Under the pieces are notes generated by a model, which worked only from the letters and a program-made list of their open reading frames with translations, was not told the origin of the DNA and made no database searches. The position numbers and the translations under genes were made by a program. From NCBI RefSeq assembly GCF_011045215.1, contig NZ_CP049201.1: a DNA stretch of 64,000 nt. One strand, given 5' to 3'. Each line of letters begins with the position of its first letter. Within the stretch, counting starts at the first letter, position 1. Below are positions 1-22,804 of this stretch, in pieces. The DNA is from Escherichia coli (GTDB lineage: Bacteria; Pseudomonadota; Gammaproteobacteria; Enterobacterales; Enterobacteriaceae).

Positions 1-1311
1 CGGATGTGGACGAGAGTTCAGTATATGAAGCACATAACTATGAGTTTCACTGCCTATGTGCCCCGCCCATTCCAGAAGACGCTCTGGCGTCCAGGTGGCA
101 TGCTGTCGATGAGCTTCAGGCATGTGCTCGTTGCGGGTACTGTAGCCATAAGTACGCTTGCGCGGGTGCACAGCAACCTCCTGCCCCTGATTGAAGAGTC
201 TTACCAGTTCTCCGGAGATCCATGCTTCCAGTTGCTGGCCTAACAGCGAACATGGAACCGAGTAGTAATGTTTGTCGATTTCCACGTGGTAATCGGCATG
301 AACTCTGACTTTCTTCACCAGGGTGTAACTGTAACTGGCTTCAGGAAGAGGCTTCAGTGCGGGTTTATCAAGCTGGATGAAGAGTTCTGCACGTGAATAA
401 CCCAACTTCTGCATTATTTTGTTATTCAGTCTTTCCAGCAACTCCCGAATGCGCTGATTAAGCGATGCAAGGCTGTAGAAGATCTCATGCCTGATTCGGG
501 CCATGATCCAGCGTTCAACAACCTGAACGCCAACTTCAGCTTTGGCTTTATCTTTCGGTTTACGTGGCCGCGCAGGCAAAACTGCGACATTATAATGCTC
601 AAGCATCTGCTGGTAGGTAGGGTTAACGTCAGGATCATACTTACATGCCCTGGATGTGGCGCTTTTCAGATTGTCCGGAACAACAAGTTCAGGAACGCCA
701 CCCAACCACTGGAAGCAGCGAACATGACTCATCACCCAGTCTTCAAGCTGCTGAGACCAGGTGGCCTCTGCCCATGTGTAACTTGATGCCCCGAGAACAG
801 CTACGATGACCTGAGCAGTTCTTATTTCTCCGGTCTCAGGGTCGGTAACGCCAACGGTAGGTCCACAGTAATCAACGAAAAGTTTTTCGCCAGCTTTATG
901 TACCTGACGCATTGATGGTGAAGTGGTTTTGAGCCATTCACGGTACATCCGGCAGTAATGGTTATAGCTGTAAAAACCGCCTGGATTACGCTCACAGTAT
1001 TCTTCCCAGAGTAGCTGCAGCGTCACGCATTTATTACGCAGTTCCCGGTGTACTGTAGCCCAGTCAGGCAGAGAGTGCTTCTTCATCTTAACCTGGGTCT
1101 GAAGGAACGCATGTTTTAGTTTTGTATCATCCCATCCTGTAGGTAAGGGCCACTGCTTTATGCCAAGTTGAGCCGCCCGATTAGCATATCTGGATACAAC
1201 GGAAGGGGAGATTGCAAGACTACGACCAATTTGTCGATGGCTGAGTCCAACACCGTATTTAAGCCTAAGAATTTCTTTAAGTTTTCTCATAGAAATTGGA
1301 ACTGTTGGCAT
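1..1311 (-). CDS. istA: IS21-family transposase IstA, C-terminus truncated by window start
   Basis: Manual translation of minus strand: MPTVPISMRKLKEILRLKYGVGLSHRQIGRSLAISPSVVSRYANRAAQLG...VDYCGPTVGV...RPRKPKDKAKAEVGVQ...; N-terminal HTH plus IstA-type DDE integrase core, no stop through position 1. Confidence 0.8.
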   Translation of the reverse strand, partial: MPTVPISMRKLKEILRLKYGVGLSHRQIGRSLAISPSVVSRYANRAAQLGIKQWPLPTGWDDTKLKHAFLQTQVKMKKHSLPDWATVHRELRNKCVTLQLLWEEYCERNPGGFYSYNHYCRMYREWLKTTSPSMRQVHKAGEKLFVDYCGPTVGVTDPETGEIRTAQVIVAVLGASSYTWAEATWSQQLEDWVMSHVRCFQWLGGVPELVVPDNLKSATSRACKYDPDVNPTYQQMLEHYNVAVLPARPRKPKDKAKAEVGVQVVERWIMARIRHEIFYSLASLNQRIRELLERLNNKIMQKLGYSRAELFIQLDKPALKPLPEASYSYTLVKKVRVHADYHVEIDKHYYSVPCSLLGQQLEAWISGELVRLFNQGQEVAVHPRKRTYGYSTRNEHMPEAHRQHATWTPERLLEWAGHIGSETHSYVLHILNSRPHP

Positions 1312-1371
1312 AGGTATCCTTTACCGGAATGGCAAAAGATACAGATCAACACACCTGTGAAGTTCCAATAA
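1..1371 (-). mobile_element. IS21-family insertion sequence, partial (istA 5' part and left-end region; remainder off-window)
   Basis: Uninterrupted minus-strand frame from ATG at 1311-1309 to the window edge (absent from the ORF track because no stop lies in the window). Exact IS terminus not resolved. Confidence 0.6.
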
Positions 1372-2993
1372 CATTGATGGAGATCACTGAATAACAAAAT
1401 GAGTCAAAAGTGATCTCCATCGATGTTATCATATCCTTACCCATAAATCCGAGTGATGTTATTCTGTTGATAAATTAACCATAATTTAGAGGAACTATGG
1501 AAAACTGGGTTATTAAGGAGCTGGAATCTCTGAATGTTGGTGATATCAGGCTCGAAAAGCGAATAAAGCACGTTCTCAGTGTGCTTAGCCGTTCACCAAA
1601 GGAAAGTATTCCCGTATCCTGCCGTACCTGGAGTGAGACAAAAGCTGCTTATCGTTGCTTTTCCAGTGATAAAATTTCAGCCGATAAAATCATGGCTCCC
1701 CATAAGAAAAATATCATCGAAAGGACTAAACAGTTTAAACGGGCTCTGGTTTTACAGGATACGACTGAACTAAATTATTCTGGTCAAAAAAAGAAACAGG
1801 GCGTCGGTCCCAGACGACATGAAAATGAGCGAGATTTGTTTATTCACCCTCAATTGGTTATAAGTGATTCAGGTATTTGCTTAGGGGTTTATGATGATTA
1901 TCAATGGTTCAGAAAAGAACTCAAAACTCAGAAACAAAGTCGTAAAGAAATAACTAATGATTCACTTCACAGGAAACATATCAGTGAGAAAGAAACAGGA
2001 CGGTGGATAGAAGGATATAAAAAAGCAACAGAACTGGCTAGGTCCTGTCCTGATACCCAGATAATTTCTGTTTCAGACCGTGAAGGTGATATTTACGACC
2101 TCTTTGAGAGTGCAGAAAATGAAAGTGGGATAAAGGCTGACTGGCTCGTAAGAATGAAGAGCATTAACCGGGCTATACTGAATTCATCAGGAAAAAGAGA
2201 CTCATTACTCCTGAATGAAAAAATGATGCAGATTTTGCCACAGCAGATAATTGAGTTTACCCTTCCGGAAGGACGAGGACAACCTTCCCGCAAAGTCCAG
2301 CAGGAGCTACGCTTAGCAAGGTTGACGCTACATCCACCCACCGGTCGAAGAGGAAAGTTACGTTGTTCTCCGGTAACGGTAACTGTATTACTTGCAAAGG
2401 AAATAAATGCTCCAGAAAGTGTCCAGCCATTAGTATGGTGGCTAATGAGTAGTGTACCTCCAGAAAAGCTGACGGAACCCGCACAGCTTATTCAATGGTA
2501 TTTATTACGCTGGCAGATTGAAGTTTTCTTTAAGGTATTAAAAAGCGGATGTCAGGTTGAGAAATTACAACTTGAGACATTTGAACGCACAAGGAACTGT
2601 CTGGCCTTATACCTTATAATCTCATGGAGAATACTTTATCTTAGCTCATTGTATAAAATGGTTCCGGAGGAACCCTGTGATTTAATTTTCGAAAAGAAAG
2701 AATATGAGTATCTCTGGATATTGGTAGAGAATACGCCTCCACCTGAAAACATACCGAATATAAGAACGGCGGTTTTAATGCTTGCAAGATTAGGAGGATA
2801 TCTGGCAAGAAAAAATGATTCGCCTCCAGGCCCTAAGACTATATGGTCAGGATTAACACAATTAATGCTGTCAATTAATGCCATAGAAATAGCCCAGAAA
2901 ACTTGTGGGTAAGGGTATGCGATGTTATTCAGCGATCTGTTCAAATGTTATTACCCGATCTCGATGGAAGTTATTGAGTGATCTCCTTTCATG
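1372..2993 (+). mobile_element. IS4-family insertion sequence (IS50/Tn5-like transposase)
   Basis: 24-bp imperfect terminal inverted repeats: CATTGATGGAGATCACTGAATAAC (1372-1395) versus reverse complement of 2970-2993 CATGAAAGGAGATCACTCAATAAC (20/24 identical), bracketing the transposase ORF. Confidence 0.75.
1497..2912 (+). CDS. IS4-family DDE transposase (Tn5/IS50-like)
   Basis: 471 aa, ATG preceded by GAGGA; motifs LQDTTELNY, VSDREGDIYD, YLLRWQIEVFFK, ARLGGY match the Tn5 transposase catalytic regions. Confidence 0.85.
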   Translation: MENWVIKELESLNVGDIRLEKRIKHVLSVLSRSPKESIPVSCRTWSETKAAYRCFSSDKISADKIMAPHKKNIIERTKQFKRALVLQDTTELNYSGQKKKQGVGPRRHENERDLFIHPQLVISDSGICLGVYDDYQWFRKELKTQKQSRKEITNDSLHRKHISEKETGRWIEGYKKATELARSCPDTQIISVSDREGDIYDLFESAENESGIKADWLVRMKSINRAILNSSGKRDSLLLNEKMMQILPQQIIEFTLPEGRGQPSRKVQQELRLARLTLHPPTGRRGKLRCSPVTVTVLLAKEINAPESVQPLVWWLMSSVPPEKLTEPAQLIQWYLLRWQIEVFFKVLKSGCQVEKLQLETFERTRNCLALYLIISWRILYLSSLYKMVPEEPCDLIFEKKEYEYLWILVENTPPPENIPNIRTAVLMLARLGGYLARKNDSPPGPKTIWSGLTQLMLSINAIEIAQKTCG

Positions 2994-3271
2994 AAAATAC
3001 GCACCTCCTTCTCGCTCCTGAAAGATGGACAGTTTTGTATTCTTCGTTCATATTCACAGGTAACCTGCCCCAGAATATCCTCCGGCGGTGTCAGCCACTT
3101 ATTCCTGAGCAATACACTGGTTGATGAATGGCAGCAGGCTATTTCAGCAATAATTTCATGTAATATCTCCGGCCTGAATTTCTTCAGTTCATTGTGATGT
3201 TCCCGGGTAAAACCATGTTCATCGAACAAAAGCTGCCATATCATTGATATACTTCCTTTATTCATCATCAA
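2951..3271 (-). CDS. hypothetical protein (106 aa); 3' end overlaps the IS4 right inverted repeat
   Basis: ORF whose start overlaps the stop of the upstream PerC-like gene (ATGA overlap at 3268-3271). Last codons (RIFMKGDHSIT) are encoded by the IS terminal repeat, so the native C-terminus may be replaced. Confidence 0.3.
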   Translation of the reverse strand: MMMNKGSISMIWQLLFDEHGFTREHHNELKKFRPEILHEIIAEIACCHSSTSVLLRNKWLTPPEDILGQVTCEYERRIQNCPSFRSEKEVRIFMKGDHSITSIEIG

Positions 3272-3597
3272 TACCTGTTATCTGAATATCTACAGGTCAA
3301 TATACCTTTTCTGAATACCTCTCCGGACGGGCTGGCAATCCCCATTCGCCTCAGCGTGGCATCTGCAGCTTTTACCACTTCGCTGATATCCAGCTTTTCA
3401 GGTAGCGGCGGGGACGATATCTGCGTCAGGCAATAATTCCTGCGTAACAACAACCACTCCCGTTGTACTTCTGTACATTCAAAATTGCCCATAACAAATA
3501 GCCAGCGGGCAGAAGCTCTGCGCCAGTAACCTGCAGCCTCCAGTTTCTGTGCAACCGCGTCTTCCACAACCTCCGGGGTTCTCTTTTTCCTACTCAA
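3268..3597 (-). CDS. PerC-family transcriptional activator-like protein
   Basis: 109 aa; motif LEAAGYWRRASARW...QREWLLLRRNYCL resembles the conserved core of PerC/Pch regulators (from memory, not searched). Confidence 0.5.
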   Translation of the reverse strand: MSRKKRTPEVVEDAVAQKLEAAGYWRRASARWLFVMGNFECTEVQREWLLLRRNYCLTQISSPPLPEKLDISEVVKAADATLRRMGIASPSGEVFRKGILTCRYSDNRY

Positions 3598-4348
3598 AAC
3601 ATCAACTCACTGAAATAATACACATATCTGACGCTATCAGCGAACCGTCCATGCCAGGTTCAGTACCAATGCGTTCATCCGGCCAGCCCAGACGTGACAG
3701 GTCCCTGACAATATCAGGCATTGAGGTTATCTGATATTTTTCCTTTTCACTGCGTATTTAATCTACAGAATTTCCGGAACAGTCAGAAATTATAAGGTTA
3801 CGTGAAACGCTGCTCTAGATAACCTCTTCAGTAGTATTATCCTCTCATTATAAGTTACTATTTTTAACAACATTTTATCTCTGATTTACATGTTTATTTT
3901 AAAACATATAATATCTCTATATTGGTACTGAAACTGACAAAAACGAGACATGTTCTGACTACCGAACATCACCGGAATTTTCTCAGCAAATTTCCCATGT
4001 AGTCGAAAATGCCAAACTAAAGATGAGTTTATCTCTGCCATTAACCATGATTAATTGTGGATTTGTCTCTCCCCATGGATTTAAACACAATCATTATAAA
4101 CGTCTCGCAGTTATCTCCAGTTTGGTTGCCACTGTAACGGAATTATTTCCTGATAAATTTTATTCACTACGAAATTACTAACAACACCATTTTCTTTTAG
4201 CTATTGCGCAATAGCACTTATTTTATATGTCTCAGGAATATGCTGATGTGACTCAACTAAAGAAGTCTGTACCCATGGATTCCGTACAATAATATGAGCG
4301 CATTGTTCGAATCAGGTTTGTGTCTCCCGATACAATGTTTTTCAGACT

Positions 4349-7030
4349 TTAGCCCAACAGGCCTGACAGAAACGTTCCCAACTTCCCTTCTATATCACTG
4401 TCTATAGTACGTAATCTTAGCAATGGCAGGCCACATTTCTTCAGTATACTGTTTTTAAGTTCATCACGTTCAGCCTGAACACTGGTCAGATGATAACCTC
4501 CATCCACTTCAATAACCCCTAACGGAGCCTTCCCGACCTTATAGTAAACAACAAAGTCACAACTGGCACGGTTACGCATGAATAACTGTTCACGGTGTGT
4601 AAAATCCCCCCGCTCCAGCAACACCAACTGATTCAGCGCTATTTGTGAATGAAACATCATACTCCGATAACTATCCTGCGACAGGATATCCCGCAACAGG
4701 CAGGCCACAATCTGTTCTGACTTAAAGTGTGAATCATTTGAATTCAATCTACTATTCAGTCGTTCCAGTGATTTGTCATACTCACTGTACAGCAAATCAA
4801 ATGCTGATATGACCGGGCTCTCGAAAATCTCTCCGTCATCAGCGTAGTATTTGATGTAACGAATCAGCGCCGCAATATGTCCAGCGTGGCGTTCAAATAC
4901 ATCATTACCAGTCACCAGCGTAAATTTATTTCGGGCCCTTGAAACAGCGACATTCACCAGTTCAGGATTATCAACAAACGCGATGTTCCGACTTTGCTGG
5001 CTGCTGCGTTTCTTATCCAGCACAGTGGAAAACACAATTTCATCGCACTCCCGTCCCTGAAATTTATGCACCGTCGATTTCACAAAATCAGCAGGCAGCA
5101 CTTTTTCAGCCAGATTAACCTGTGCATTATATGGGGCAATGTATCCCCTGCTACTTTCTTCATCCCAGTAATGACCTTCCAGAGATTCAAGCTCCCTGAG
5201 ATTTGAAAAATTACGGGTATGGTTTCCTTTTGCCGTGATGACCAGAGATAATGAGGCTTCACCGGAATCAACCGTTAGCGGTATCAGAGCATTATCATAA
5301 AACTGCTTATTACAAAATTGAATGATTTTAGGATGACAGCGATAATGCTCTTTAAGAAGAGTTACTGGCACCATGTTCCTGAACAACATACAAACCGAAT
5401 CAAGTAGACTATATTTCTCACAATTATAGTATTCTGCCGGTGGAGATGGGCTGTTCGGGAGTAATACAGGAACATGTGGAAGTTGCTTACGATCCCCTAC
5501 AACGATTACATTACGGGCACATCCCAGTCCCAGAATGCCCGGAATAATATCCTGCTGTGAGGCTTCATCAATAATCACATAATCAAGAAGGGCACCCTTA
5601 CCGATTGAGTTAATAATCGAATGCGTGCTGCTACCAATAACCGGAAAACGCTTTATAAAATGGTCAAATTCATCCCTGTATGCTTCTGTCGAGAATGAAT
5701 TTCTTGTTGAAATATTTCTTCGCAGATGTTGCTTTAAATAAAGCATAGACCATGATATCAGGCGTTCCAGTAAAATTTTAAAATCAGATTCCTTTAATAC
5801 TTTCTCACATTCATTCAGAGAAAATTGCTTTTCCCGGATAGCTTTTTCATAATAAGAAAGCTGAAGAGAAGTAAATAGTGCCTGCCTTCTCTCCGGAATC
5901 ATCAATGGTTTGACTTTCAGTATCCTGAAGTTTAACAATAAATCAATTCTGTTTCTGAATCCAATCCGCCTGTCAGAAAGGTAATGAATATAAGCCATCA
6001 GGTCGGTTGTTTTTCGTGAGGAAAACCGATATTTGTGAGAAAAAAACTCCTCCGGTCGAAGATTCTGACTCTGCCATTGTTGCAGGTATTTATACTCAAT
6101 ACTCAGTTCATCAATTTCTGCTTTTAACGAAGCAACCTGGTTGATGGCATTCAGGTGTTTTTTCACTTGTTGAAGTACATCATCAATCGCATTTGCAGAC
6201 GGTGAATCAGATAAGGCTTCCTCAGAACGCGAAATCGACGTTGAAAAAAACTGTTGCCTGTTCTCCGTACTCCCCAGTCGTGCCACCACATATCCCAGTT
6301 GCTGTTTGTCCATCTTTTCATAAACATTACTGACAGCTGAGTTATTATTGGACAAAATTGCCACTGTTTTATTCTGAATTAATATATTAGCAACAATATT
6401 GAGTATAGTCTGTGTTTTACCTGTTCCAGGTGGTCCTTCAATAACTGAAATCTGTGAGGAAAATGCCCGTTCGACAGCCAGCAACTGACTTTCATTAAGA
6501 CCAAACGGAAAAATCAAACTCCATGGCGAATCACGTTTTTTACTCTGTCCTGAACAGTATGCATGCAAGGCGGTATCCGGATGAGGAACTATTTTCTTTA
6601 TCTGCCTAAGGATATTCTCATCGATATTTCGGTTATTACCACGAGCATAAAAAATACGTTCATTAGCCACCCTACACAAGTAATTAAACACGGCATGCTC
6701 TGTAAATGCTGAACACTGTTGAAAGTCAAGGCCGGTCGTTTTCATAATGTAGGGTCGTTCACCCTCGCGGTAATAAACAGCAGCATATTTATCACCATAT
6801 ATAATAACCCGTTCAGCCCGGGATGTTACAGCGTCCCCTTTCCTTTCGAGGAAAACATTTCGCAAATTTACAGTTGGCGTTATCTGACATACAGAAAGCG
6901 GACGAGTATATTTTTTCCCGCTGCGAAAATGACAGGTCAGCATAACCTCTCCGTCGTCATTTCCAGCCCACAGCGTCCAGTCGGTAATTTTATGAGTCTT
7001 ATTTTCACCGTCAACACAAATCGTGACCAT
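4349..7030 (-). CDS. SF1B (Upf1/DNA2-like) helicase fused to a C-terminal Vsr/DUF559/DUF2726-like endonuclease domain, with an uncharacterised ~180-aa N-terminal domain
   Basis: 893 aa; Walker A GPPGTGKT, Walker B IIDEASQ, VVGDRKQLP, HYRCHP, SRAR helicase motifs; C-terminal IEVDGGYH...ERDELK...GLPLLRL resembles PD-(D/E)xK Vsr-like nuclease folds. Confidence 0.75.
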   Translation of the reverse strand: MVTICVDGENKTHKITDWTLWAGNDDGEVMLTCHFRSGKKYTRPLSVCQITPTVNLRNVFLERKGDAVTSRAERVIIYGDKYAAVYYREGERPYIMKTTGLDFQQCSAFTEHAVFNYLCRVANERIFYARGNNRNIDENILRQIKKIVPHPDTALHAYCSGQSKKRDSPWSLIFPFGLNESQLLAVERAFSSQISVIEGPPGTGKTQTILNIVANILIQNKTVAILSNNNSAVSNVYEKMDKQQLGYVVARLGSTENRQQFFSTSISRSEEALSDSPSANAIDDVLQQVKKHLNAINQVASLKAEIDELSIEYKYLQQWQSQNLRPEEFFSHKYRFSSRKTTDLMAYIHYLSDRRIGFRNRIDLLLNFRILKVKPLMIPERRQALFTSLQLSYYEKAIREKQFSLNECEKVLKESDFKILLERLISWSMLYLKQHLRRNISTRNSFSTEAYRDEFDHFIKRFPVIGSSTHSIINSIGKGALLDYVIIDEASQQDIIPGILGLGCARNVIVVGDRKQLPHVPVLLPNSPSPPAEYYNCEKYSLLDSVCMLFRNMVPVTLLKEHYRCHPKIIQFCNKQFYDNALIPLTVDSGEASLSLVITAKGNHTRNFSNLRELESLEGHYWDEESSRGYIAPYNAQVNLAEKVLPADFVKSTVHKFQGRECDEIVFSTVLDKKRSSQQSRNIAFVDNPELVNVAVSRARNKFTLVTGNDVFERHAGHIAALIRYIKYYADDGEIFESPVISAFDLLYSEYDKSLERLNSRLNSNDSHFKSEQIVACLLRDILSQDSYRSMMFHSQIALNQLVLLERGDFTHREQLFMRNRASCDFVVYYKVGKAPLGVIEVDGGYHLTSVQAERDELKNSILKKCGLPLLRLRTIDSDIEGKLGTFLSGLLG

Positions 7031-7471
7031 ATTCTCACTCAGAAATTATCATTTAACTTACGGAAAATTGTTAAGGCACTCCCGATATTAGCTCCGGAGG
7101 ATTTTCCACAACCCCGGGACTGTTAACATATTTCTGCCTGCCATATATACATTGAATTCAGTCATAACAGTCAATACCAGAATTACAGGAACGCGATGCC
7201 GATACGCTCGTTATTGAATACAGATAGCCCTGGCACTAATTCATCACGATACTCTGTATTTACTATTTTCACTGCTTTTTACAACCATTCCCCCAGGTAA
7301 AAAAGTCCATTTATCATGCTCCTCTTTAACGCCTGTCAGCCTAATTTAAGAATGGATACCGTGGGTGGAATTAACAATACTTACTCAGGCCAATGCCATG
7401 TAACCGCCTCACTGAAAAAGCCAGATCAGCTAACCAGGCACAGACCAACATCGCAAAAATTACCATGCAGC

Positions 7472-7507
7472 ACGCGCGTATTTTCATGGAAGGAGATCAT
7501 CCAATAA
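7472..7507 (+). repeat. Solo copy of the IS4-element terminal repeat plus 9-bp outside flank
   Basis: 7484-7507 CATGGAAGGAGATCATCCAATAAC matches the IS right-end repeat 21/24; the preceding GCGTATTTT also matches the sequence just outside the IS right end (2994-3002, complementary strand). Confidence 0.6.
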
Positions 7508-7656
7508 CGGCGTTTTTCAAGGAAACGAATCTCTTTGATTATCTATGGTGTGTACATTCTTTTGGGTTTATTTTCCATTACCATGTTTTATCAGCCATTA
7601 TGGCTGCCTCACTGGTTTGCCAGCGTGTTCCACCTGATAACGATTAATCAACTGAT

Positions 7657-8874
7657 TCAGTGCCATTTCAGCCTGTTTTTGATGCTAAACACCTCCGTTT
7701 TCAGTTCACTGACCGTCATGTATTTTCCCCGCTGTTCATCCAGACGGTTCAGGCGCTCAGCCAGCTGCTGTAAGCGGGTCATGCCTTCGTTCCAGCCCGT
7801 CATTGCCTCTTCCGGGAGCGCACGACTCCTTATGCTCTTCTGCCAGTTATCCACCATTTCCTGAACACGGGGATTGCCGGGGAAAAGTCCCCTCAGTTGC
7901 TGCAGCAGCTGCGCACTGCGTTGCAGATTGTATGCCGGGGGTAATTGTGTCAGCCGCGTTATCTGCTGACCGGAAAGGGTTATCCACTCTGACGCATGAT
8001 TTAACAATGAGGATGTTCTGCTGAGCTGTGTCATCTGGTCTGCTGAAAGCACATCCGGTGGTGGTGTCAGCAGCGCCCTGAGTTGCTGCTCTGCCGGTGA
8101 TGACTGTGTCAGAAACTGCCATCCCGGAATGACCACGCTGACAGTCAGCAATGCCGCACAGACACCAGCCAAAAACGGCTTCAGAAACATGGACGGGAAT
8201 TTCTGAAGGGAGGGTGTGGGCTCTGTTTTTGTTTCAGAAACAACATACACCAGACGGGAGTGCGGCAGGGGCTGATGTTCCTGTACGTCCCGAGCATCAG
8301 ACCGGAGTGCCTGAGCCGGAAGGGTTACCGGAGACGACGCTTCGCCCTGTACAGGCTGGTTCTCCAGACGGGTGATATATCCCTTCACCATGGCTTCCGG
8401 CAACGCCACTTTACTGCTCTGTTTAAGTTCGTGCCGGGCCAGTGTGTCACTCAGTGCCTTCAGGAATGTTTCGGTCTGATACAGCAGGGGCAGATTGTCA
8501 CGGTCGTCCGGTGGCATGGCCCGGAGCGTTTTTTGCAGACGGTTGAACAGACCGGTAATAATTTCCAGCCGGGCATGGGTATTCAGCGGCCACATCACTG
8601 ACCAGTGATGCCGGGTCAGCGCCACAATCAGAGCCAGCCCTTCATTCAGGCCACTTAACCCTGTTGTATGCATCCGGGCAATGGTGTACCAGGATGCCGT
8701 CTGCAATTCCACGCCATTGTGTTCATACAGACGCAGGCAGAGCGTTTCCACGTAACGCCAGTCAACATCCGGGCGTGCCGGGTGGGTCAGTTTGCTGATT
8801 TCATCGCGCAGGGCAGCATAATCCGGTAATGACCGGGGGTCACCACCGGTTTTTAGTTTCACTTCAGAAGTCAT
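7657..8874 (-). CDS. ImpA_N-domain (TssA/VasL-like) protein with a central transmembrane helix
   Basis: 405 aa; N-terminal DWRYVETLCLRLYEHNGVELQTASWYTIARMHTTGLSGLNEGLALIVALTRHHWSVMWP follows the ImpA_N pattern; hydrophobic segment FLKPFLAGVCAALLTVSVVIPGW. Confidence 0.55.
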   Translation of the reverse strand: MTSEVKLKTGGDPRSLPDYAALRDEISKLTHPARPDVDWRYVETLCLRLYEHNGVELQTASWYTIARMHTTGLSGLNEGLALIVALTRHHWSVMWPLNTHARLEIITGLFNRLQKTLRAMPPDDRDNLPLLYQTETFLKALSDTLARHELKQSSKVALPEAMVKGYITRLENQPVQGEASSPVTLPAQALRSDARDVQEHQPLPHSRLVYVVSETKTEPTPSLQKFPSMFLKPFLAGVCAALLTVSVVIPGWQFLTQSSPAEQQLRALLTPPPDVLSADQMTQLSRTSSLLNHASEWITLSGQQITRLTQLPPAYNLQRSAQLLQQLRGLFPGNPRVQEMVDNWQKSIRSRALPEEAMTGWNEGMTRLQQLAERLNRLDEQRGKYMTVSELKTEVFSIKNRLKWH

Positions 8875-9299: not shown

Positions 9300-11126
<1,827 letters not shown>

Positions 11127-13352: not shown

Positions 13353-13571
13353 CTATTTACGATAGTATCTTCGCATTTGTAGATAGAGTTGTAACCAAAT
13401 CCCAGCACCTCCCCATAAGCCAACTACTGCGCCAATTATTCCGTATTTTACATACACCTCAGAAGGTATTGGTTCCCGAGCTATAAACCAGATACTAACC
13501 ACTATTCCAATAGAGCAAGTAGCTATAGATATAAGTAACAACTTAATAAGAAGTAGTAGATGTTTTTTCAT
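13353..13571 (-). CDS. cdiI: CdiI immunity protein (72 aa, two TM helices)
   Basis: Start overlaps the cdiA stop (ATGA at 13568-13571); hydrophobic two-helix protein. Confidence 0.7.
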   Translation of the reverse strand: MKKHLLLLIKLLLISIATCSIGIVVSIWFIAREPIPSEVYVKYGIIGAVVGLWGGAGIWLQLYLQMRRYYRK

Positions 13572-16500
13572 TTTTTGTCTCCATCAACTTCTTTTTGCGT
13601 TGCGCTGCTTGCACCTTCTGATACGAATGAACCAACAAATCCACCAAATGTTCCTGGTATAGAACTCATTTGGCCGCCTTGATACATACCGTATCCGATA
13701 GACTTTTCCGAATATTGCAGTGAATATTTACTGGCGTCCATTCCCAGTTGATTTTTGATGTATTGAGCTTCTAACTTATTAGTAATTGAAGCGCCAATGT
13801 TATAGCCAAGGCCTGTACCAGCCATGCTACCCACTACTGATGCGGTACTGTCCTGGCCTTCAATCTGGCTGCTCATGTAAGCGCTACCGGCACCCAACAA
13901 CTGGTTAGCGTAATATCCTTTCCCGGCTGTACCTACACCAGTCAAGCCTGACATCATGAAACTGAGATAATCGAACTTATCACCGATATTTCCCGTACCA
14001 ATTTGTACCGCACCATTAGCCCCATAGCTCAGCCCGGCACTAACAAATTTTTCCGTCAGCGTGGCTGATGACGTTAACAACGAACCCGCTCCGGCAACCG
14101 TACCCCAGTAATTTTCCGGTTCCCCGAAGAAAGCCAGAGCCCTGTCACCCTTCGACGTATTACTGTTCAGATAATTCAGGTCGTAGCTGTTGCCTTCAGC
14201 CACGTAATCCTTCACCTCCTGATTAGTCAGTGAACCATACAGCCAGCTAGGTCGGCCCGCCGCGCTGAGCCCGCCCTCAATATTCCATTTATCTTCCCCG
14301 GACAGAGCCGTCAGAGGATCTGCGGCCACATCAATGTGTAATTTCTGTCGGTTCTCTGCGCTTAATACAGCATATTTATTCTGAATATCGCCGCAGTCTC
14401 CACCCGCTTTACGACAGGCCGTCATTTCTCTGTCAAAAGCATGCGCCTCGTCGTAGCTGAGGTAGTTATTCTCAACTGTTGTCTTACCTGACTGTGCGCC
14501 GGCTACCGCTGAAGCCCCCGAGTCGCCCACCAGACCACCGGCCAGGCCGGCAGCAACCGTTGCCAGCGTGGAGACCGTCTGTTTCTCTGTCTCACTCAGT
14601 TCACTCACCGGTTTATCGTACATCTGTGTGGCTATCATTCCCACCACCTCGCCGGTGGCTGCACCTGCAGCACCGGCAAGAGCATTATTTCCCTGTGCCA
14701 GAGACAGTGCGGCATTCACCACGGCATGGGCGGCCACATTTGCAGCCTTATTCACCTCACCTGTAACCGGGTCTGTGGTCATGGTTTTCACCACTTCAGC
14801 CAGATACGGTGCTGCACCACCTGCCAGGGCTGCACTCAGATTACCGCCGGCCAGCCCCTGTACTGCTGCCGTTGCGGCCTGTATCGCCTGCTGGTATTTG
14901 CCTCCCGTTCCAAAACCGGAGGCCGCCATACCGTTATTGTAAGCCCGCTGTGCCACATCCTGTTCCGTGAACGGTTTTCCTGCTGCCTCAAGCTCTGCAC
15001 GGGCCTGATTCAGTGCTGCCGGGTCCCGTTTCGCTTTCTCACCGGCTATCTGTCCTTCCGTTCTGGCAATATCTGCCACCTGGTTACCAATCTCACCAAT
15101 GAGTTGCGCCTGCTGCAACCGCTGCTGCTCTTTTTCCCTGTCAAAGATGGGGGACAGCGTCTGGTTTGCATGCGCAACGTCACGGTTCAGGTCTGCCACA
15201 TCCTGTTTCTGGCTCTGTGTATCCCGGATAGTGATATTCCCGGCAGACACAGCCGACTGCGTGGTACTGTCCGCATGGCCTTCATGATTTGCACCGACCA
15301 GCAGATTGTTTGCCATGTTCCCCAGGAAATTTCCGGCAACACTGCCACCGGTACTGAGCCCTGCACTCTGATGTTCCGTTTTAAAGTCAGCCCGGTTTTC
15401 AGTGTCACTGAAGCCCAGTGTGCCGGTATCCAGCCTGTTTTTATCTGCCGTTGCCGTGGACGCAATCACCGCACCGTTCAGTTGTGTATGCTGTCCGGTC
15501 GTGACATCAAACCCGCCCCTGCCGGCAAAAATCCCTGTCTGCTCCTGCACACTGTCGTGGTTACTGTGCATTTTATCCCGGCTGAGGCTCACACTCGCCG
15601 AACCGCTCATGGACCCGAAAGTGAAGCTGCCTCCGGCGCTGGCATTCTGCTGTTTACTGTCATAATGGTCACTGTCCTGCTCACTGGTCAGTGTCAGATG
15701 GCGACCGGCATCCACTTTCACGGTTTCTCCACTGGCCTGCGCCCCGGTAAGTGTGGTGTCACGCCCACTGATAATGGTCAGCTGTTTTCCCGCATCCACC
15801 GTGGTTTCTGTATGGGTGGTACCGTTGCCTTTTTCACTGCCCTTACCCTGGTTTGCGCTGGCTGACAGACTGAAACCAGGCCCTCCGGGCCCCACACCGA
15901 TACCGACACCCACGCTGCCACCACTGGATGTGTTCTTTCCTTCCAGCTTTGACGTGTTTTCTGCTGATACCAGATTCACGTCACGGTTTGCCTGCAGCAG
16001 AACGTTGTTCCCGGCCTTTATCTGACCGCCCTGTATCGTCAGGTCACCATCCACGCCCTTCACGCCGGAGCCGGTGGCCTGAATACTGAGGTTATTACCT
16101 GCGGTCAGTGTACTGCCCTTCGCCACCGTCTGCTCTGACTGCTGTTCTGATTTCGAAGACTGGCTGCCGTAAGAGAGGCTGATACCCACGGTATTGTTAT
16201 TCTCTTTCTGGTTGCCCTGTGCTTCTGCCAGTCGTCCGGCCTGCACGGCCTGAGCCCCCGAGAGCGCGGCCTTCACCCCCTGCAGGGCTTCAAGCCGGCT
16301 GTTTCCGGCAGATTTCGCCGCCTGTACGGTCTCCACCGTCGTGTTCAGGGCGCTGCCCGCTGTGCCGGACAGGGCAAGCGTCAGACCGGAGGTTTTCTGC
16401 TCCACCGTATGTGTCTGCACATGCCGGTCAGTGGCGGCGGTAATGCTGACCTCCTTACCACTGAGTGCCATGTCCCTGCCGGCAATCAGGTCAGAGCCGT

Positions 16501-19500
16501 TGACGGTCAACCGGTTACCTGCCTGAAGGGAAACATCACCGTGAACACTCCCCACCGTGCTGCCTTTCTGCGTGGTGTCTGTTGCGGTGTCCGTGACCTT
16601 CAGACTCTGGCTGCCCACGCTGAATCCCACACCTCCGGAGCTCATCAGTCCGGATTTTTTCTCCTGTTTCAGGTGTGTTTCACGGTTGCTTTCTGTCAGC
16701 GTTCCGATACTCAGGTTATTTCCGGCAGCCAGGGAGACACGGTTATCCCCGGCCACACTGCTGCCCGTGACGTTCAGATTATGTCCGGCACCGATACTGA
16801 CCGTATCCCCGTTCAGTTCACTGCCCGTCATGGTCCGGCGGTCAGTGACATCATGCGTGGTAGTGGTGGTTTTCGATAACATCCCGCTGTTGCCGGTCAC
16901 TTTATGGTATTCATCCAGCGAGCGGGTATTCTGTGCACCGGTCAGCGTCACGTCATGACCCGCCATCAGGGCCAGGCCTTTCTGAGCTGACAGCAATGCC
17001 GCCTGTGACGTCATATCCCGTCCGGCGGTCAGCGTGACATCACCGTTACCGGCAAGCGTGCTGCCCGTACTCTGTGTGACGCCCTGCGACAGACGATTAT
17101 TTTTATCCCAGATAATATTGTCCTGCGCGGATGTGGTCACTGTGGAGAATGTCATATCCCTGCCGGCACTGAGTTGCGTCAGACTGTCCTTACCCTGGTT
17201 CACCACCGTTGCTGCCGTCAGGTTTATGTCCCGTCCGGCCTGCAGCACCAGTCTGCCCTGGTCATTCTGCACATATACGCCAGCCACACTGTCGATGCTG
17301 GTACGTTCAAAATGGTTCTGTCCGGCGTCACTCTGTGCCGTACGGGTGGTGGTGGTCAGACTGATATCCCGTCCGGCCATCGCCAGCAGGCTGTCCGTGG
17401 CCTGCAGCAGCCCGCCGGTACTGTTAATATCCGTCCGGGCCGTCAGGCTGACATTTGCTCCCTGAATGGTGCCGGCCTGGTTGTGAATGTTTTCTGCACT
17501 GAGCTGCACGGCCTGCTTCCCGGCCAGTTTACCGCTGTTAAACAGGTCACCATCCAGCTTCATCACCATGTCCCTGCCGGCAATCAGCGCACCGGCACTG
17601 TTCACATCACCGGGTTTTACACGGGCATACACCTGAGGTACCTGAACCGTCTGCGTGCTGCCGTCCGGCAGTGTCACCGTGGTGTTAACCAGCCAGACAA
17701 TATCACCGGTCAGTAACGCCATCTGCTCAGCAGTCAGCGCCACACCTGGTGTCAGGTTGTATTGCTTACCAAATGCAATACCCGCATCCATTAACGCCTT
17801 AAACTGCTCTTCATCATTACTGTATCCGTCCAGGTACCGTTGCCCGGTCAGAGCGACAACCTGCTCACGAATCAGACGCTGTTCGTAAAAACCATCCCCC
17901 AGGCGTTTGAGCATGTTATCCCCGTTCTGAGAAAACGCCTTCTGCATGTAATCACTGCCCAGCCACGTCTTCTGGTTCGTAAAACGCGGGTCCGTTTCAA
18001 CCAGATATGGCACATTCACTGCCGGATTTGTTTTAAACAGGCTGCTGTCCGGCAGACGGGTATCCGGCCCGGCAACATGGATACTGCCCTGAGGTGCGCT
18101 GACTTCAAACTGCTGCCCCGGCAACAGAATGACCGGTTCACCGGCTGACACCACCGGGCGAAGCGGTATCCGGTCAGTAACGGCTACTGTCGCATCCACA
18201 TTTCCGGTCAGTCCTGTCTGTACATCCGTTCCCTGTGGCTTCAGGGGAGAAAGCGTGACCTGGCTGCCCTGAACCTGTCCGTGGCTGGTGAGCTCTCCCG
18301 GCTTCAGCGTGATGGTCTGAATGACGGGGGGCGGCTCGTAAGGGGAAATTCTTTCCCCCTGCCTGTCATTTTTATTTTTTCTTTTTATCCGGTAATAATA
18401 TGTGGATGTCCCTTTATCAGTAACATGGCGCTCTCCGCTGACACTGACGTTTTCCACATCACCGGCCTGCATATCCAGCAGACCACCTGCAACCACCTGG
18501 CTCTTGTCATTAAGCAGTTTGTCTGCCACAACCGTCATGCCGGCACCGGACAGTATTTTCCCCGGGTCGGAGTCTTTTACCCGGGTTTCCTCCACGGTAC
18601 GGGTGTATTCATATTTTGTGAACCGGTCGTTGTTATGTCCGGTATCATCCGGCGTGTTCAGGTTCAGCAGTCCATCAGAGGAGTTGTTATCAATGAACAC
18701 CCCCTCATCTTTTGCATTCCAGCGGACATCTGACCCGCGATGCTGATACTCAGTCACCTTTTCCGTGGAAACCACCACGCGCTCCGTGGTGAAATGGTCA
18801 TTGACGTTATTGATTTGTCCGGCACTCAGTACCAGATATCCGGCGGCTTCAATAGTGGCACTGTGATTATTCAGTACACCGGTTTTACCTGTGGCGGTGC
18901 CATTCGCATCCAGCGTGCCACCGATATGCATATCACCTGCACTGTAAATCAGGCTGTGCGTCCGGTTATTCAGGGTCTGTACCCCCAAGTCCACACGCTC
19001 ACGCCCGGCCAGCGTCGCCGCCACGCCATTTTCTTCCAGATTATTAAATGTGGCAGCACTGACACCAACAGCATCGCCGTAGATTCGCCCGGTACCGGAA
19101 TTCGTCAGGGTGTTCGCCTGAAGATGCGTATATTTCCCGTCAATCAGCCCACGGTTCAGCAGTGTGTCCGTCACGTTAAGCCAGGTCTGCCCGGCACTGA
19201 TTTCACCTTTCCCGGTGTTTTCAAGGCGGATGCTGTTCAGGTCAAGTCGGCTGCCTGCCAGCAGGCTGCCGGTATTAGAGACATCGCCATTAACGGAAAG
19301 CGTAAGGTTTCCGTTCGCAATAGTCTGACCACTGTTACTGAACGCTGTGTTACTTTTCAGCGTTATATCGCCCGGGGAAAGCAGTTTCCCGTCACCACCG
19401 AGCTGACCGGCATCCACAGAGACTGACTGCCCGGCCTTAACCACACCGTCACGGTTCGAAAACGCCAGCTGACGGCCACTGACAGACAATGTCGCGCCGG

Positions 19501-22500
19501 AAGAGAGCACGCCATCATTATTACTGAGCGTCCTGTCTGCCATAACCGTAAGCGCCCTGTCTGCCAGAATACTGCCCTCCTGGTTATCAAGGTCCTGCGT
19601 CGTGATGTGTATTGTCTGCGCTTCCAGCCCCTGGCCGGTATTCTGCGTGTGGCGATTGATAAACTGCAGGGCGTTCAGCGTAATGGCAGAACCACTGCGA
19701 ATCAGACCAGAGACGTTGTCCACAACGCCCCGTACACTGTCGAACAGAATGTCGCCCACAGACTGTATCTGTCCGTGGCTGTTCTGCAGGCCTCCCGTAT
19801 GCAGACGGAGTTCACCTTCACTGACCAGCCGGCCACCCTCACGGTTATCCAGCGAGGTGGTGCTCAGGTCAGCTGTCGTTTTCGCCCCCACGGTCCCGCC
19901 CCGGTTATCCATTGCTCCGGTACTGACAGTCAGTTCCTGCAGGCTGTTCAGCGTACCCCCTCTGTTATCCAGCGTCCGGCCTGCGCTATTAATGCTGATG
20001 CCTTTCCCCTGAATAAGACCGGACTGATTGTTCAGCGCCAGACTGTTCCGGCCGGGCAGACCGGTCGCCACAATCTGACCATTCGCCACCACCTGACCGG
20101 ATGTATTGTTAACCACGCCTGCAGTCAGGGACAGCGCATCTCCCGACAAAAGCACACCGGCAGTGCTGTCCAGTGTGCCGGCATTCAGCGTCATCGGGCC
20201 CTGACTGATAACCCCGCCCCGGTCACCACTGTTACGGTTGCTCAGTGTGTCAGCACGGAGATTCAGTGTGGCACCGCTCTGTATCAGACCACCTGCATCA
20301 TTGCTGATATCCGTCGAGGAAAGGGTCAGTGACTGCTGTGCCACCAGTCTGCCGCCCTGATTATCAGAGCGGGTGACATCCAGCCTGCTGTTACCGTTGC
20401 TGACCACCGTCCCCTGCTGATTTTCCAGCACATTCAGGTGCGCATTCAGGTCCCCGCCGGCGGCAAGCGTCCCTTCCTGATTACTGACATCGCCACCACT
20501 CAGCAACATATCCGTCCCGGCCTTCAGTGCGCCTTTCTGGTTCATCAGCGTACCTGACGATATCTGTAATGACGCCTGACTCCCCAGCACGCCCTGACGG
20601 TTATCGAGCGTTCCGGCGTTCAGGGTCATATCCTTCTGACCCGCCATAAATCCCTGCTGGTTATTCAGCATACCGGCCCGTACTGTCAGGGTACCGGCGC
20701 TGCTGATACCACCCCGTGTTTTCGTGTTCCGGTTACTGAGAACCCCGTCCTGTACATCCAGCGTCATGTCACTGCCGGACTGAATCAGACCATCATCAGA
20801 GACCAGTTCGCTGCCTGACACAGACAGCGTTTTCTGTGAAAGCAGTCTGCCGGACGTATTATCCAGCGCACCATCCAGCGTCACGGACAGCCCGTCAGAC
20901 ACCACCGTACCCTGGTGGTTATTCAGACTCCCTGCCGAAATATCCAGCCTGCCGGCGGACTCCATTCGTCCCTCAGTATTGCTGACAGCCTGCTGTGTTT
21001 TTATCCTGCCCGTTCCGGCAGCAGCTGAAATCAGTCCGTTGTCGTTATTCAGTGCCTGTGTATTAATCAGGATGTCACGGCTGGCAATCAGACTTCCCTG
21101 CTGGTTATCCACGGCGCCGGTTGTCCTCACCTGCAGACTACCTGACTGCGCCGCCTGCACTTTCCCCCTGCGATTATCAAGGCTCAGTGCATCCAGGCGC
21201 ACCGCGCCATTTGCCGCAAGCAGCCCTTCCCGGTTATCCACGCTTCCCGGCAGACTCAGCGAAAAATCCCCTGTTCCCGTCTGAATCAGACTGCCTTTAC
21301 GATTTGACAGGCTCTGTGCCGATATCTGCAGTGTGTCGGCATTTACCGTGCCACCATTATTGCTGAACTGCCCGGCAGTCCGGGCGGAAAGCGTACCGGC
21401 ACTCAGTTGTGCATTCTGTGTGGACAGATTTCCGCTGCCTGCATCCAGCTCAGTATGTTGTCCCTGTATCCGGCTGTTGCTTAAATCCAGCCCCTGCCCC
21501 TTCAGTTGCATGTCCCCACCGGACAGAACCTGTCCGTGTGCCGCCAGTTCGCCGGTGGTACTGACAGTCAGGTTGCCCGCTGCCGCCAGACGTCCGTCAT
21601 CTTTCACCCCGGCGGCCAGCAGACTCCGCTCACCGCCGGTCAGACGCGCTGTCTGAATCCGGGTGTTGCGGCGTGATGCCACAGAGCCTGTATGGGTGAA
21701 TGCACCATCACTCTGTATCTGCGTATCCTGCCCCGCATAAACAGAACCACTGTTATGCAGCTCCCGGGTTGTCGCCAGATGCACATCCGTTTTCGCACTG
21801 ATACTGCCACTGTTTTCAATACGTCCGTCAGCCGTCAGGGTAACCGCCCCTGCCTGCGCACCAATATGACCGGCGTTACGAACCCCCACCCCCGTTTCCG
21901 TACCGACAAGGCGAATTTTTCCGGCATACATTCCACCAAGGCTGGACACATCCAGCGCCACCTGTGGCTGCGAAGAGGCATCAGCGGCTTTTTTCTCAGT
22001 CTGCCCGTGTGCAATATCCACATTGTTACGTCCGGTGGTCACTTTCAGGTCCTGCGCCCAGATACCCGCATTAATCTTCACAGACCGGGCAATGATATCG
22101 GTATAATCCGTGCGCGAGGCATCCATCCCTTTGCCCGTAATCTGAATCTCACCACGTTCAACACTGAATCCGGTCAGACTGCCGTTTTTCATCTGAGGCT
22201 GCCCCGTGGTCAGCGTGGCCCGGTTCGCATTAATAAAACCGCACCCGTCGCAACTGATGCCGGCCGGGTTCGCAATCACCACCTGCGCCTTTTTCCCGGC
22301 AACCTCAACAAAACCGTTCAACTGGCTGGGATTGCGACTGTTCACTTCATTAAGAATGATTCGGGCCTCTCCCTTCGCCAGCCACGGGTTACCGGCAACC
22401 ATGCCGCCCAGTTGGGTCTGCACATTTTTATGCGAGTTATTCAGAATGACACCCTGATGACTGACATCAAACTGACTGTAAGTATTGTGCGATACCCCAC

Positions 22501-22804
22501 CTGCAGAAGGTGTCTGGATATTGACCTGAGGAATGCCGCTGGCTGTCTGCGTAATCGTGGGCTGCTGATGCCCCGGTGCGCCATGGTCTGCGACAATGCC
22601 TGCAGCACTGACAGAATGCACCATCCCCGAGGCCAGCCACAGGGAGAATGCAAGCGATGTGACACGGCAGATACGTTGCCTGCGTGGATATCCTGTACGG
22701 GAGGAGGGTGATGCACCGGCGCGACCGGAACGGGCAATATCTGCCACCACCATCAGCATTCCCCGGGCTTTGTTAAAAATAATGCGGTAACAATTTTTGT
22801 TCAT
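13568..22804 (-). CDS. cdiA: CdiA contact-dependent inhibition toxin / TpsA exoprotein (3078 aa)
   Basis: Extended signal peptide MNKNCYRIIFNKARGMLMVVADIARS, TPS domain, long filamentous-haemagglutinin repeat region, VENN motif at 14465-14476 followed by a 298-aa Gly-rich C-terminal toxin domain. Confidence 0.95.
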   Translation of the reverse strand: MNKNCYRIIFNKARGMLMVVADIARSGRAGASPSSRTGYPRRQRICRVTSLAFSLWLASGMVHSVSAAGIVADHGAPGHQQPTITQTASGIPQVNIQTPSAGGVSHNTYSQFDVSHQGVILNNSHKNVQTQLGGMVAGNPWLAKGEARIILNEVNSRNPSQLNGFVEVAGKKAQVVIANPAGISCDGCGFINANRATLTTGQPQMKNGSLTGFSVERGEIQITGKGMDASRTDYTDIIARSVKINAGIWAQDLKVTTGRNNVDIAHGQTEKKAADASSQPQVALDVSSLGGMYAGKIRLVGTETGVGVRNAGHIGAQAGAVTLTADGRIENSGSISAKTDVHLATTRELHNSGSVYAGQDTQIQSDGAFTHTGSVASRRNTRIQTARLTGGERSLLAAGVKDDGRLAAAGNLTVSTTGELAAHGQVLSGGDMQLKGQGLDLSNSRIQGQHTELDAGSGNLSTQNAQLSAGTLSARTAGQFSNNGGTVNADTLQISAQSLSNRKGSLIQTGTGDFSLSLPGSVDNREGLLAANGAVRLDALSLDNRRGKVQAAQSGSLQVRTTGAVDNQQGSLIASRDILINTQALNNDNGLISAAAGTGRIKTQQAVSNTEGRMESAGRLDISAGSLNNHQGTVVSDGLSVTLDGALDNTSGRLLSQKTLSVSGSELVSDDGLIQSGSDMTLDVQDGVLSNRNTKTRGGISSAGTLTVRAGMLNNQQGFMAGQKDMTLNAGTLDNRQGVLGSQASLQISSGTLMNQKGALKAGTDMLLSGGDVSNQEGTLAAGGDLNAHLNVLENQQGTVVSNGNSRLDVTRSDNQGGRLVAQQSLTLSSTDISNDAGGLIQSGATLNLRADTLSNRNSGDRGGVISQGPMTLNAGTLDSTAGVLLSGDALSLTAGVVNNTSGQVVANGQIVATGLPGRNSLALNNQSGLIQGKGISINSAGRTLDNRGGTLNSLQELTVSTGAMDNRGGTVGAKTTADLSTTSLDNREGGRLVSEGELRLHTGGLQNSHGQIQSVGDILFDSVRGVVDNVSGLIRSGSAITLNALQFINRHTQNTGQGLEAQTIHITTQDLDNQEGSILADRALTVMADRTLSNNDGVLSSGATLSVSGRQLAFSNRDGVVKAGQSVSVDAGQLGGDGKLLSPGDITLKSNTAFSNSGQTIANGNLTLSVNGDVSNTGSLLAGSRLDLNSIRLENTGKGEISAGQTWLNVTDTLLNRGLIDGKYTHLQANTLTNSGTGRIYGDAVGVSAATFNNLEENGVAATLAGRERVDLGVQTLNNRTHSLIYSAGDMHIGGTLDANGTATGKTGVLNNHSATIEAAGYLVLSAGQINNVNDHFTTERVVVSTEKVTEYQHRGSDVRWNAKDEGVFIDNNSSDGLLNLNTPDDTGHNNDRFTKYEYTRTVEETRVKDSDPGKILSGAGMTVVADKLLNDKSQVVAGGLLDMQAGDVENVSVSGERHVTDKGTSTYYYRIKRKNKNDRQGERISPYEPPPVIQTITLKPGELTSHGQVQGSQVTLSPLKPQGTDVQTGLTGNVDATVAVTDRIPLRPVVSAGEPVILLPGQQFEVSAPQGSIHVAGPDTRLPDSSLFKTNPAVNVPYLVETDPRFTNQKTWLGSDYMQKAFSQNGDNMLKRLGDGFYEQRLIREQVVALTGQRYLDGYSNDEEQFKALMDAGIAFGKQYNLTPGVALTAEQMALLTGDIVWLVNTTVTLPDGSTQTVQVPQVYARVKPGDVNSAGALIAGRDMVMKLDGDLFNSGKLAGKQAVQLSAENIHNQAGTIQGANVSLTARTDINSTGGLLQATDSLLAMAGRDISLTTTTRTAQSDAGQNHFERTSIDSVAGVYVQNDQGRLVLQAGRDINLTAATVVNQGKDSLTQLSAGRDMTFSTVTTSAQDNIIWDKNNRLSQGVTQSTGSTLAGNGDVTLTAGRDMTSQAALLSAQKGLALMAGHDVTLTGAQNTRSLDEYHKVTGNSGMLSKTTTTTHDVTDRRTMTGSELNGDTVSIGAGHNLNVTGSSVAGDNRVSLAAGNNLSIGTLTESNRETHLKQEKKSGLMSSGGVGFSVGSQSLKVTDTATDTTQKGSTVGSVHGDVSLQAGNRLTVNGSDLIAGRDMALSGKEVSITAATDRHVQTHTVEQKTSGLTLALSGTAGSALNTTVETVQAAKSAGNSRLEALQGVKAALSGAQAVQAGRLAEAQGNQKENNNTVGISLSYGSQSSKSEQQSEQTVAKGSTLTAGNNLSIQATGSGVKGVDGDLTIQGGQIKAGNNVLLQANRDVNLVSAENTSKLEGKNTSSGGSVGVGIGVGPGGPGFSLSASANQGKGSEKGNGTTHTETTVDAGKQLTIISGRDTTLTGAQASGETVKVDAGRHLTLTSEQDSDHYDSKQQNASAGGSFTFGSMSGSASVSLSRDKMHSNHDSVQEQTGIFAGRGGFDVTTGQHTQLNGAVIASTATADKNRLDTGTLGFSDTENRADFKTEHQSAGLSTGGSVAGNFLGNMANNLLVGANHEGHADSTTQSAVSAGNITIRDTQSQKQDVADLNRDVAHANQTLSPIFDREKEQQRLQQAQLIGEIGNQVADIARTEGQIAGEKAKRDPAALNQARAELEAAGKPFTEQDVAQRAYNNGMAASGFGTGGKYQQAIQAATAAVQGLAGGNLSAALAGGAAPYLAEVVKTMTTDPVTGEVNKAANVAAHAVVNAALSLAQGNNALAGAAGAATGEVVGMIATQMYDKPVSELSETEKQTVSTLATVAAGLAGGLVGDSGASAVAGAQSGKTTVENNYLSYDEAHAFDREMTACRKAGGDCGDIQNKYAVLSAENRQKLHIDVAADPLTALSGEDKWNIEGGLSAAGRPSWLYGSLTNQEVKDYVAEGNSYDLNYLNSNTSKGDRALAFFGEPENYWGTVAGAGSLLTSSATLTEKFVSAGLSYGANGAVQIGTGNIGDKFDYLSFMMSGLTGVGTAGKGYYANQLLGAGSAYMSSQIEGQDSTASVVGSMAGTGLGYNIGASITNKLEAQYIKNQLGMDASKYSLQYSEKSIGYGMYQGGQMSSIPGTFGGFVGSFVSEGASSATQKEVDGDKK

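Follow-up and report, generated by a model that had tools for sequence, protein, structure and literature searches.

The 64,000-nt stretch of Escherichia coli DNA analysed here (assembly GCF_011045215.1, contig NZ_CP049201.1; hereafter the window) raises a question close to its left edge: on the minus strand, an open reading frame (ORF) resembling the PerC family of transcriptional activators is followed directly by a small ORF of 106 amino acids (aa) that runs into insertion sequence (IS) DNA. What are these two genes, and which IS cut the second one? We consider it very probable that what is seen here is the ibrA-ibrB-pchD-ECs1389 segment of the O157 island SpLE1 (OI-43/48) in a decayed state, in which pchD is intact and its downstream neighbour has been cut by ISEc12, an element of the IS21 family.

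The first of the two ORFs (3268..3597, minus strand) encodes 109 aa from its first possible start, a TTG, and contains the sequence AGYWRRASARW. An initial annotation had called it PerC-like on account of the motif GYWRRASARW, and a profile search bears this out: Pfam PF06069 is matched at 112.7 bits (gathering cut-off 22.6; E=1e-32) over profile positions 2-87 of 90, with the domain beginning at residue 11 of the 109-aa ORF. The length is that of a PerC-family protein (99 or 109 aa for the two possible start codons) and no further Pfam or NCBIfam match was obtained. The product is identical at 77 of 88 residues (88%; E=7e-58) to Sakai PchD (ECs1388), a group-2 PerC homologue with the same PerC domain. 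Both lengths of the protein, 99 aa and 109 aa, have exact entries at NCBI under the name ‘PerC family transcriptional regulator [Escherichia coli]’. A PDB sequence search with the protein gave zero matches, and the PADLOC models gave no credible defence match. Judged by its sequence, the gene is an intact copy of the known pchD type, already catalogued and not new.

The surroundings of the gene recall those of pchD. In its best DNA matches among complete E. coli genomes, the PerC gene has an "IbrB-like" gene on one side and a hypothetical gene on the other. In SpLE1 of O157:H7 Sakai, the order is ECs1383 (a helicase pseudogene), ibrA (ECs1386), ECs1387, pchD (ECs1388) and ECs1389. The window keeps this order, with a superfamily 1 (SF1) helicase gene and ibrB on one side of pchD and an ECs1389-like gene on the other; it departs from the Sakai locus in that ibrA is absent, ibrB is reduced to a remnant of ~140 nt and the ECs1389-like gene is truncated. 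Activators of LEE1, which is part of the enterocyte effacement locus (LEE), belong to the same PF06069 family and are of similar size: these are PerC, from the EAF plasmid of enteropathogenic E. coli, and PchA/B/C, from prophages of enterohaemorrhagic E. coli. Unlike these, the window copy is island-borne beside ibr genes, and not in a lambdoid prophage or a per operon.

Two substitutions relative to Sakai pchD shape the ends of the window allele. The Sakai ATG is a GCG here, and translation must therefore start at GTG 3567 or at TTG 3597; the former gives a gene at 3268..3567 (minus strand) of 99 aa, as annotated in strain C5, and the latter is as far as the mechanically derived ORF reaches. 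At the other end, a TGA-to-AGA change lengthens the C-terminus by seven residues, so that the pchD stop overlaps the next ATG, whereas Sakai has a 20-nt gap. The minus strand at this junction reads TTGATGATG: the PerC stop TGA (3270-3268) and the ATG (3268-3266) have one base in common (TGATG). ATG 3268 is the start annotated in intact homologues of the second gene, and the same 1-nt overlap is found in the comparison sequences L001 (at 4267) and L021 (at 5300). The overlap had been described as ATGA; such a 4-nt overlap arises only with a mechanical TTG start at 3271, and the idea of a coupled pair survives this correction.

The second ORF is present, as annotated, at 2951..3271 on the minus strand (106 aa); it has zero Pfam or NCBIfam matches and consists of two unrelated parts. 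The native part (3004..3268, minus strand, from ATG 3268) is codons 1-89 of an ECs1389-like gene; the remainder (2951..3003, minus strand) is a tail of 16 codons, RIFMKGDHSITSIEIG, plus a stop, derived from the left terminal region of ISEc12. Intact homologues of the parent gene encode 214-222 aa in C5, CFS3246, BEC1, Sakai and the sister assembly L021 (GCA_910592685.1), and over its first 89 residues the window product shares 76-100% identity with members of this ECs1389 family (84% to the 222-aa C5 protein, 76% to Sakai ECs1389). The comparison with uninterrupted homologues that the initial annotation proposed was thus possible, and in L021 it is direct: that assembly has an identical PerC protein, the same spacer between the helicase and PerC genes, and an intact 222-aa gene. 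Residues 1-89 of the window ORF are identical to the L021 protein; the rest, RIFMKGDHSITSIEIG and the stop, is foreign to it. The window is colinear with L021 (99.8%) from 8567 down to 3002 and divergent beyond, and a DNA alignment with three intact genes likewise loses homology at 3002.

Where, then, is the rest of the gene? A tblastn search for its C-terminal part found none within the whole window. Instead of a full-length all-helical ECs1389-like protein of 200-222 aa, the window retains residues 1-89 only, ~40% of the protein, fused to 16 IS-encoded residues. Gene callers left the chimeric ORF uncalled in two other sister assemblies, L022 and L023, and a collection of 15 billion proteins does not contain the exact chimera. 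In strain SHP24, the same gene has been split independently by an IS66-family element. We infer that the gene remnant is a pseudogene and that its chimeric 105/106-aa product has no function.

The foreign DNA that meets the gene at 3003/3004 can be assigned to ISEc12. The outer part of the element's left end occupies 2929..3003 (minus strand), with its terminus 5'-TGCGTATTTTCATG on the minus strand at 3003; the inner part of the left end, together with the 5' portion of istA (start at ~1310), occupies 1..1429 (minus strand) and runs off the window's left edge. Window positions 1-1429, in which istA lies on the minus strand, are 100% identical to copies annotated as ‘IS21-like element ISEc12 family transposase’. 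Joined to 2929-3003, they correspond exactly, over 1504 nt, to the uninterrupted ISEc12 copy of strain M217. In M217, CGATGTTAT is present once and the element ends ...GAAAATACGCA. The window copy shares with known ISEc12 its exact sequence, TG...CA termini, multiple terminal repeats and istA; unlike the annotated copies, it is split by a nested IS4-family element. ISEc12 thereby supplies the last 16 codons of the ORF and its stop, and the L022 and L023 assemblies have the same gene/ISEc12 junction.

The nested element is a Tn5/IS50-like IS of 1490 bp (1430..2919, plus strand) with a transposase gene at 1497-2912, and it is this element to which the truncation had been attributed. Its transposase has three Pfam domains (Tnp_DNA_bind PF14706, DDE_Tnp_1 PF01609 and Dimer_Tnp_Tn5 PF02281), and, as in other Tn5/IS50-like ISs, these are combined with 17-bp imperfect inverted repeats (at 1430-1446 and 2903-2919) and a 9-bp target-site duplication; RefSeq labels it ‘IS4 family transposase’ only, with no specific IS name. 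It is easy to see how it came under suspicion: it is the nearest complete IS, and its right inverted repeat (2903-2919) is just 32 nt from the ORF stop. The view that this element itself inserted into the parent gene, so that the ORF ends in its right inverted repeat, nevertheless has a negligible chance of being correct. The stop (2953-2951) is 32 nt beyond that repeat, inside the ISEc12 segment 2929-3003. The element ends at 2919, and the 100%-identical copies in other genomes span exactly 1430-2919, which excludes 2920-3003. Its own target-site duplication, CGATGTTAT, is read at 1421..1429 and again at 2920..2928, single in uninterrupted ISEc12 and double here; the insertion site is thus within ISEc12, and removal of the element restores the exact 1504-nt ISEc12 end. 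Finally, homology to the intact gene stops at 3002-3004, the ISEc12 terminus, 84 nt from the IS4-family element. The proposal that an IS truncated or remodelled the downstream gene therefore stands (intact homologues have 214-222 aa, and here 89 codons are left and 16 added), with ISEc12 in place of the IS4-family element, which is a bystander with no part in the truncation. As a separate observation, L022 and L023 contain the same IS4-family element (5649-7138; 100%-identical over 1490 nt) at the same ISEc12 site with identical flanks but in the opposite orientation; independent hits on a hot spot, in-situ inversion or an assembly difference are all possible. The assemblies in which the orientation differs from that in the window are GCA_023901375.1 and GCA_012442205.1.

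The far flank of ISEc12 was read in these sister assemblies. In L022 and L023 ISEc12 is preceded by ...GAAGGAGG; on its other side come ATGATCGATTT... and an outer-membrane beta-barrel gene. A target duplication for ISEc12 was sought in L022, where the IS lies between ...GAAGGAGG and ATGATCGA...: none was found, and the far flank is unrelated. Beyond the break, L022 and L023 lack both the rest of the gene and any similarity to the intact locus. The truncation therefore came with a deletion or rearrangement, and precise excision of ISEc12 could not restore the gene.

The course of events that we consider very probable is the following. The left end of ISEc12 severed an ECs1389-like gene for an all-helical protein of 214-222 aa behind codon 89; the reading frame now continues for 16 codons into the ISEc12 terminal repeats to a chance stop, which yields the 106-aa ORF. 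The ISEc12 event was not a simple insertion: the 3' 60% of the gene and the genes downstream of it were lost by an IS-associated deletion or rearrangement. The IS4-family element transposed later into the ISEc12 terminal region, with a 9-bp duplication. On the other side of pchD, 390 nt of AT-rich DNA took the place of ibrA and most of ibrB.

That upstream side is decayed in its own way. The pchD upstream region and the 3'-end remnant of ibrB (ECs1387-like) occupy 3598..3739 (minus strand) and, aligned with Sakai and C5, show an internal deletion of ~68 nt: window 3550-3658 matches 9560-9668 of the comparison sequence L004 and 3647-3739 matches its 9737-9829, with ~68 nt lost between. In SHP24, these pieces correspond to the junction of pchD with ibrB and to a stretch within ibrB, and window 4130-4450 matches the SHP24 region just before the helicase. 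The intervening segment (3740..4129; 390 nt, 32-34% GC) replaces ~1.9 kb comprising ibrA and most of ibrB. It is common to the sister contigs L021-L028, has no counterpart in L004 and is without a match among 5,426 complete E. coli genomes; an Rfam scan of 2900-4400 gave zero matches. It also holds a near-consensus promoter-like site on the plus strand (3885-3912, TTTACA-16-TATAAT). Next comes an intact SF1 helicase gene (4349..7030, minus strand; 893 aa; Pfam AAA_11, AAA_12 and a DUF2726 C-terminus), the Sakai counterpart of which is the pseudogene ECs1383. The helicase gave partial matches to the helicase domains of PADLOC MkoA/MkoC (Mokosh) and Hhe, and it may be a stand-alone defence gene. 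Between the helicase gene and a type VI secretion system (T6SS) VasL/ImpA gene, we noted a solitary ~35-40-nt remnant of an IS21-family left terminus (7469-7508, CGCGTATTTTCATGGAAGGAGATCATCCAATAAC), which has 85% complementarity to the end of ISEc12 (2970-3009); L021, where pchD is without ISEc12 beside it, has the remnant as well. We considered whether this remnant and the ISEc12 terminus at 3003 bound a composite transposon carrying pchD and the helicase gene, and rejected the idea: the remnant is ~35 nt of IS end, and L021 has it without ISEc12 at 3003.

Since the second gene is known elsewhere in intact form, we characterized its family. Pfam, NCBIfam and PADLOC scans with the intact partner protein returned nothing usable, and a PDB sequence search gave zero matches. 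Its AlphaFold2 model (pLDDT 74, pTM 0.73) is an all-helical alpha-solenoid with generic structural neighbours only. The family is small: a word-indexed search yielded 40 proteins, nearly all from Escherichia plus one from Serratia, and a full profile search yielded 45 cluster representatives. The profile search also gave a weak link between the partner and the N-termini of proteins of ~460 aa; these carry, in their C-terminal part, DUF6880, a domain mentioned in no paper in our literature search. Among 100,044 GTDB species representatives the family occurs at one locus, on an E. coli-like contig in a metagenome-assembled genome; a phage collection held no match, and a plasmid collection held three matching records, all E. 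coli, one of them labelled O157:H7 EDL933. The neighbourhoods of distant members vary (PRiA4_ORF3, DUF2913, a ClpX-type zinc finger, restriction or RHS islands). On one metagenome/NCBI contig (L009, 5374-6917), a PerC gene follows the partner directly with a 4-nt overlap, the order being reversed relative to E. coli; identity to the proteins studied here is 43% for the partner and 55-56% for the PerC protein. As side observations, this L009 partner homologue also adjoins a gene with a PRiA4_ORF3 domain, and the locus is beside a 1953-aa DUF4011 Hhe-like helicase; the Serratia homologue follows a PRiA4_ORF3 gene, without a PerC gene.

Several points weigh against an intact pchD beside a dead, ISEc12-cut neighbour. 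Conservation in the partner family is highest in the 89 residues that remain, and the fragment still overlaps pchD, so it may have a residual function. The window does not reach the far end of ISEc12, and the absence of a target duplication was read from the sister contigs L022 and L023. The start of the PchD-like protein is ambiguous: GTG 3567 has GGAGG just 2 nt upstream, a short spacing, and the alternative TTG 3597 has a weak Shine-Dalgarno sequence only. The PchD-like activity that we suppose here would, moreover, follow from family membership only. Bearing on the first of these points is the alternative that the chimeric 105/106-aa ORF is expressed by way of the pchD overlap and acts as a functional N-terminal fragment working with the PchD-like protein. 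The TGATG overlap is indeed intact, residues 1-100 carry most of the invariant columns of the family, and the AlphaFold2 model puts five helices in this part. The cut, however, lies midway through a helical solenoid that is continuous and predicted as one domain; furthermore, the absence of the exact chimera from protein collections, its uncalled status in two sister assemblies and the independent IS disruption in SHP24, which suggests a dispensable gene, all argue against a working fragment, and we regard this alternative as quite improbable.

A broader proposal is that a PerC-family protein and an ECs1389-like protein form a two-gene functional module of mobile islands, in which case loss of the partner would disable or change PchD function. 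The two genes are adjacent in E. coli pchD loci, with overlapping or near-overlapping frames, and the diverged pair in L009 keeps the adjacency despite a changed gene order, which hints at functional pairing. On the other hand, five other distant partner homologues have no PerC neighbour, and a family of 40-45 cluster representatives, with one locus among the species representatives, is tiny. We therefore hold the module to be doubtful, albeit better placed than a working fragment. About half as probable, in our estimation, is that the PerC-like gene encodes an activator of virulence acting on a type III secretion system (T3SS) regulon, either the LEE or the ETT2-associated eip/eilA genes. In favour of this is its membership of the PerC family, in which group-1 Pch and PerC activate LEE1 by lifting its silencing by H-NS; for group-1 Pch, the silencers relieved at LEE1 are H-NS/StpA/Hha/YdgT (PMC4764244). 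Translocon genes and eilA are, in addition, present in the same window. Yet the gene is of the pchD type, and pchD, unlike pchA/B/C, was reported hardly to affect the operons of the LEE and not to be needed for ler/LEE expression (PMC6265319). The virulence relevance put forward for this locus is thus upheld as to the PerC family, which is firm, and weakened by the pchD type. Having weighed these alternatives, we retain the reading of a decayed segment with an intact pchD; its product, if expressed, would act as other Pch/PerC proteins do, a small regulator opposing the silencing of horizontally acquired genes by H-NS, and its targets are probably not the LEE.

The T3SS genes of the window also do not constitute the nearby effector locus that had been reported. 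There are no LEE genes within the window, and the nearest T3SS genes, the ETT2-associated eip locus with eilA and air/eaeX (~52600-64000), are ~49 kb from pchD, outside the island and beyond setC-yicL-nlpA. The eip genes encode a SycD-like chaperone, a SipB/YopB-like translocon protein and a SipD/IpaD-like needle-tip protein; none of them is an effector gene, and they have no linkage with the pchD segment. The proposed T3SS connection finds no support. eilA encodes a HilA-like regulator, and air/eaeX a giant inverse autotransporter. This locus is 98.8% identical to that of E. coli A16 (from an otter) and ~95-97% identical to those of other strains.

It had further been suggested that transcription directed outward from the IS might affect expression of the two genes. 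A promoter/terminator pattern scan of 2700-4400 gave this no backing: it found five promoter-like sites versus 6.0 expected, no terminators, and no promoter-like site pointing from the IS into the genes in the sense direction, although a scan at chance level is uninformative on IS-driven transcription. The transposase gene of the IS4-family element converges on the pchD pair, so any read-through from it would be antisense.

The pchD region is part of a large island with T6SS remnants, a two-partner-secretion haemagglutinin and CP4-type modules (YfjI, antirestriction, RadC, CbtA/CbeA), the end of which adjoins setC-yicL-nlpA. Among the T6SS fragments is an apparently intact gene for a 405-aa ImpA_N/VasL protein (7657-8874). 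A 3078-aa haemagglutinin-repeat ORF (13568-22804; two-partner-secretion/contact-dependent-inhibition type) is accompanied by a ShlB/FhaC-type transporter region. From 27000 to 51900, setC, yicL, nlpA and the CP4-like modules are only ~93% identical to most complete E. coli genomes, and the exact pchD-region proteins are labelled E. coli at NCBI despite this ~93% backbone identity; the source strain may be from a divergent lineage.

For this strain, the consequence is small: the result is an annotation-level correction, in which a known gene type and an IS-generated pseudogene remnant are the products of ordinary island decay. It may mean more for pchD itself. The function of pchD has been elusive in studies of O157, and the gene has a conserved, translationally linked partner of the ECs1389 family, of which we found no mention in the retrieved literature. 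If the two genes do form a module, this could explain the lack of a clear phenotype for pchD alone, and ISEc12 would have broken that module here. Studying pchD and its partner as a pair might reveal their function.

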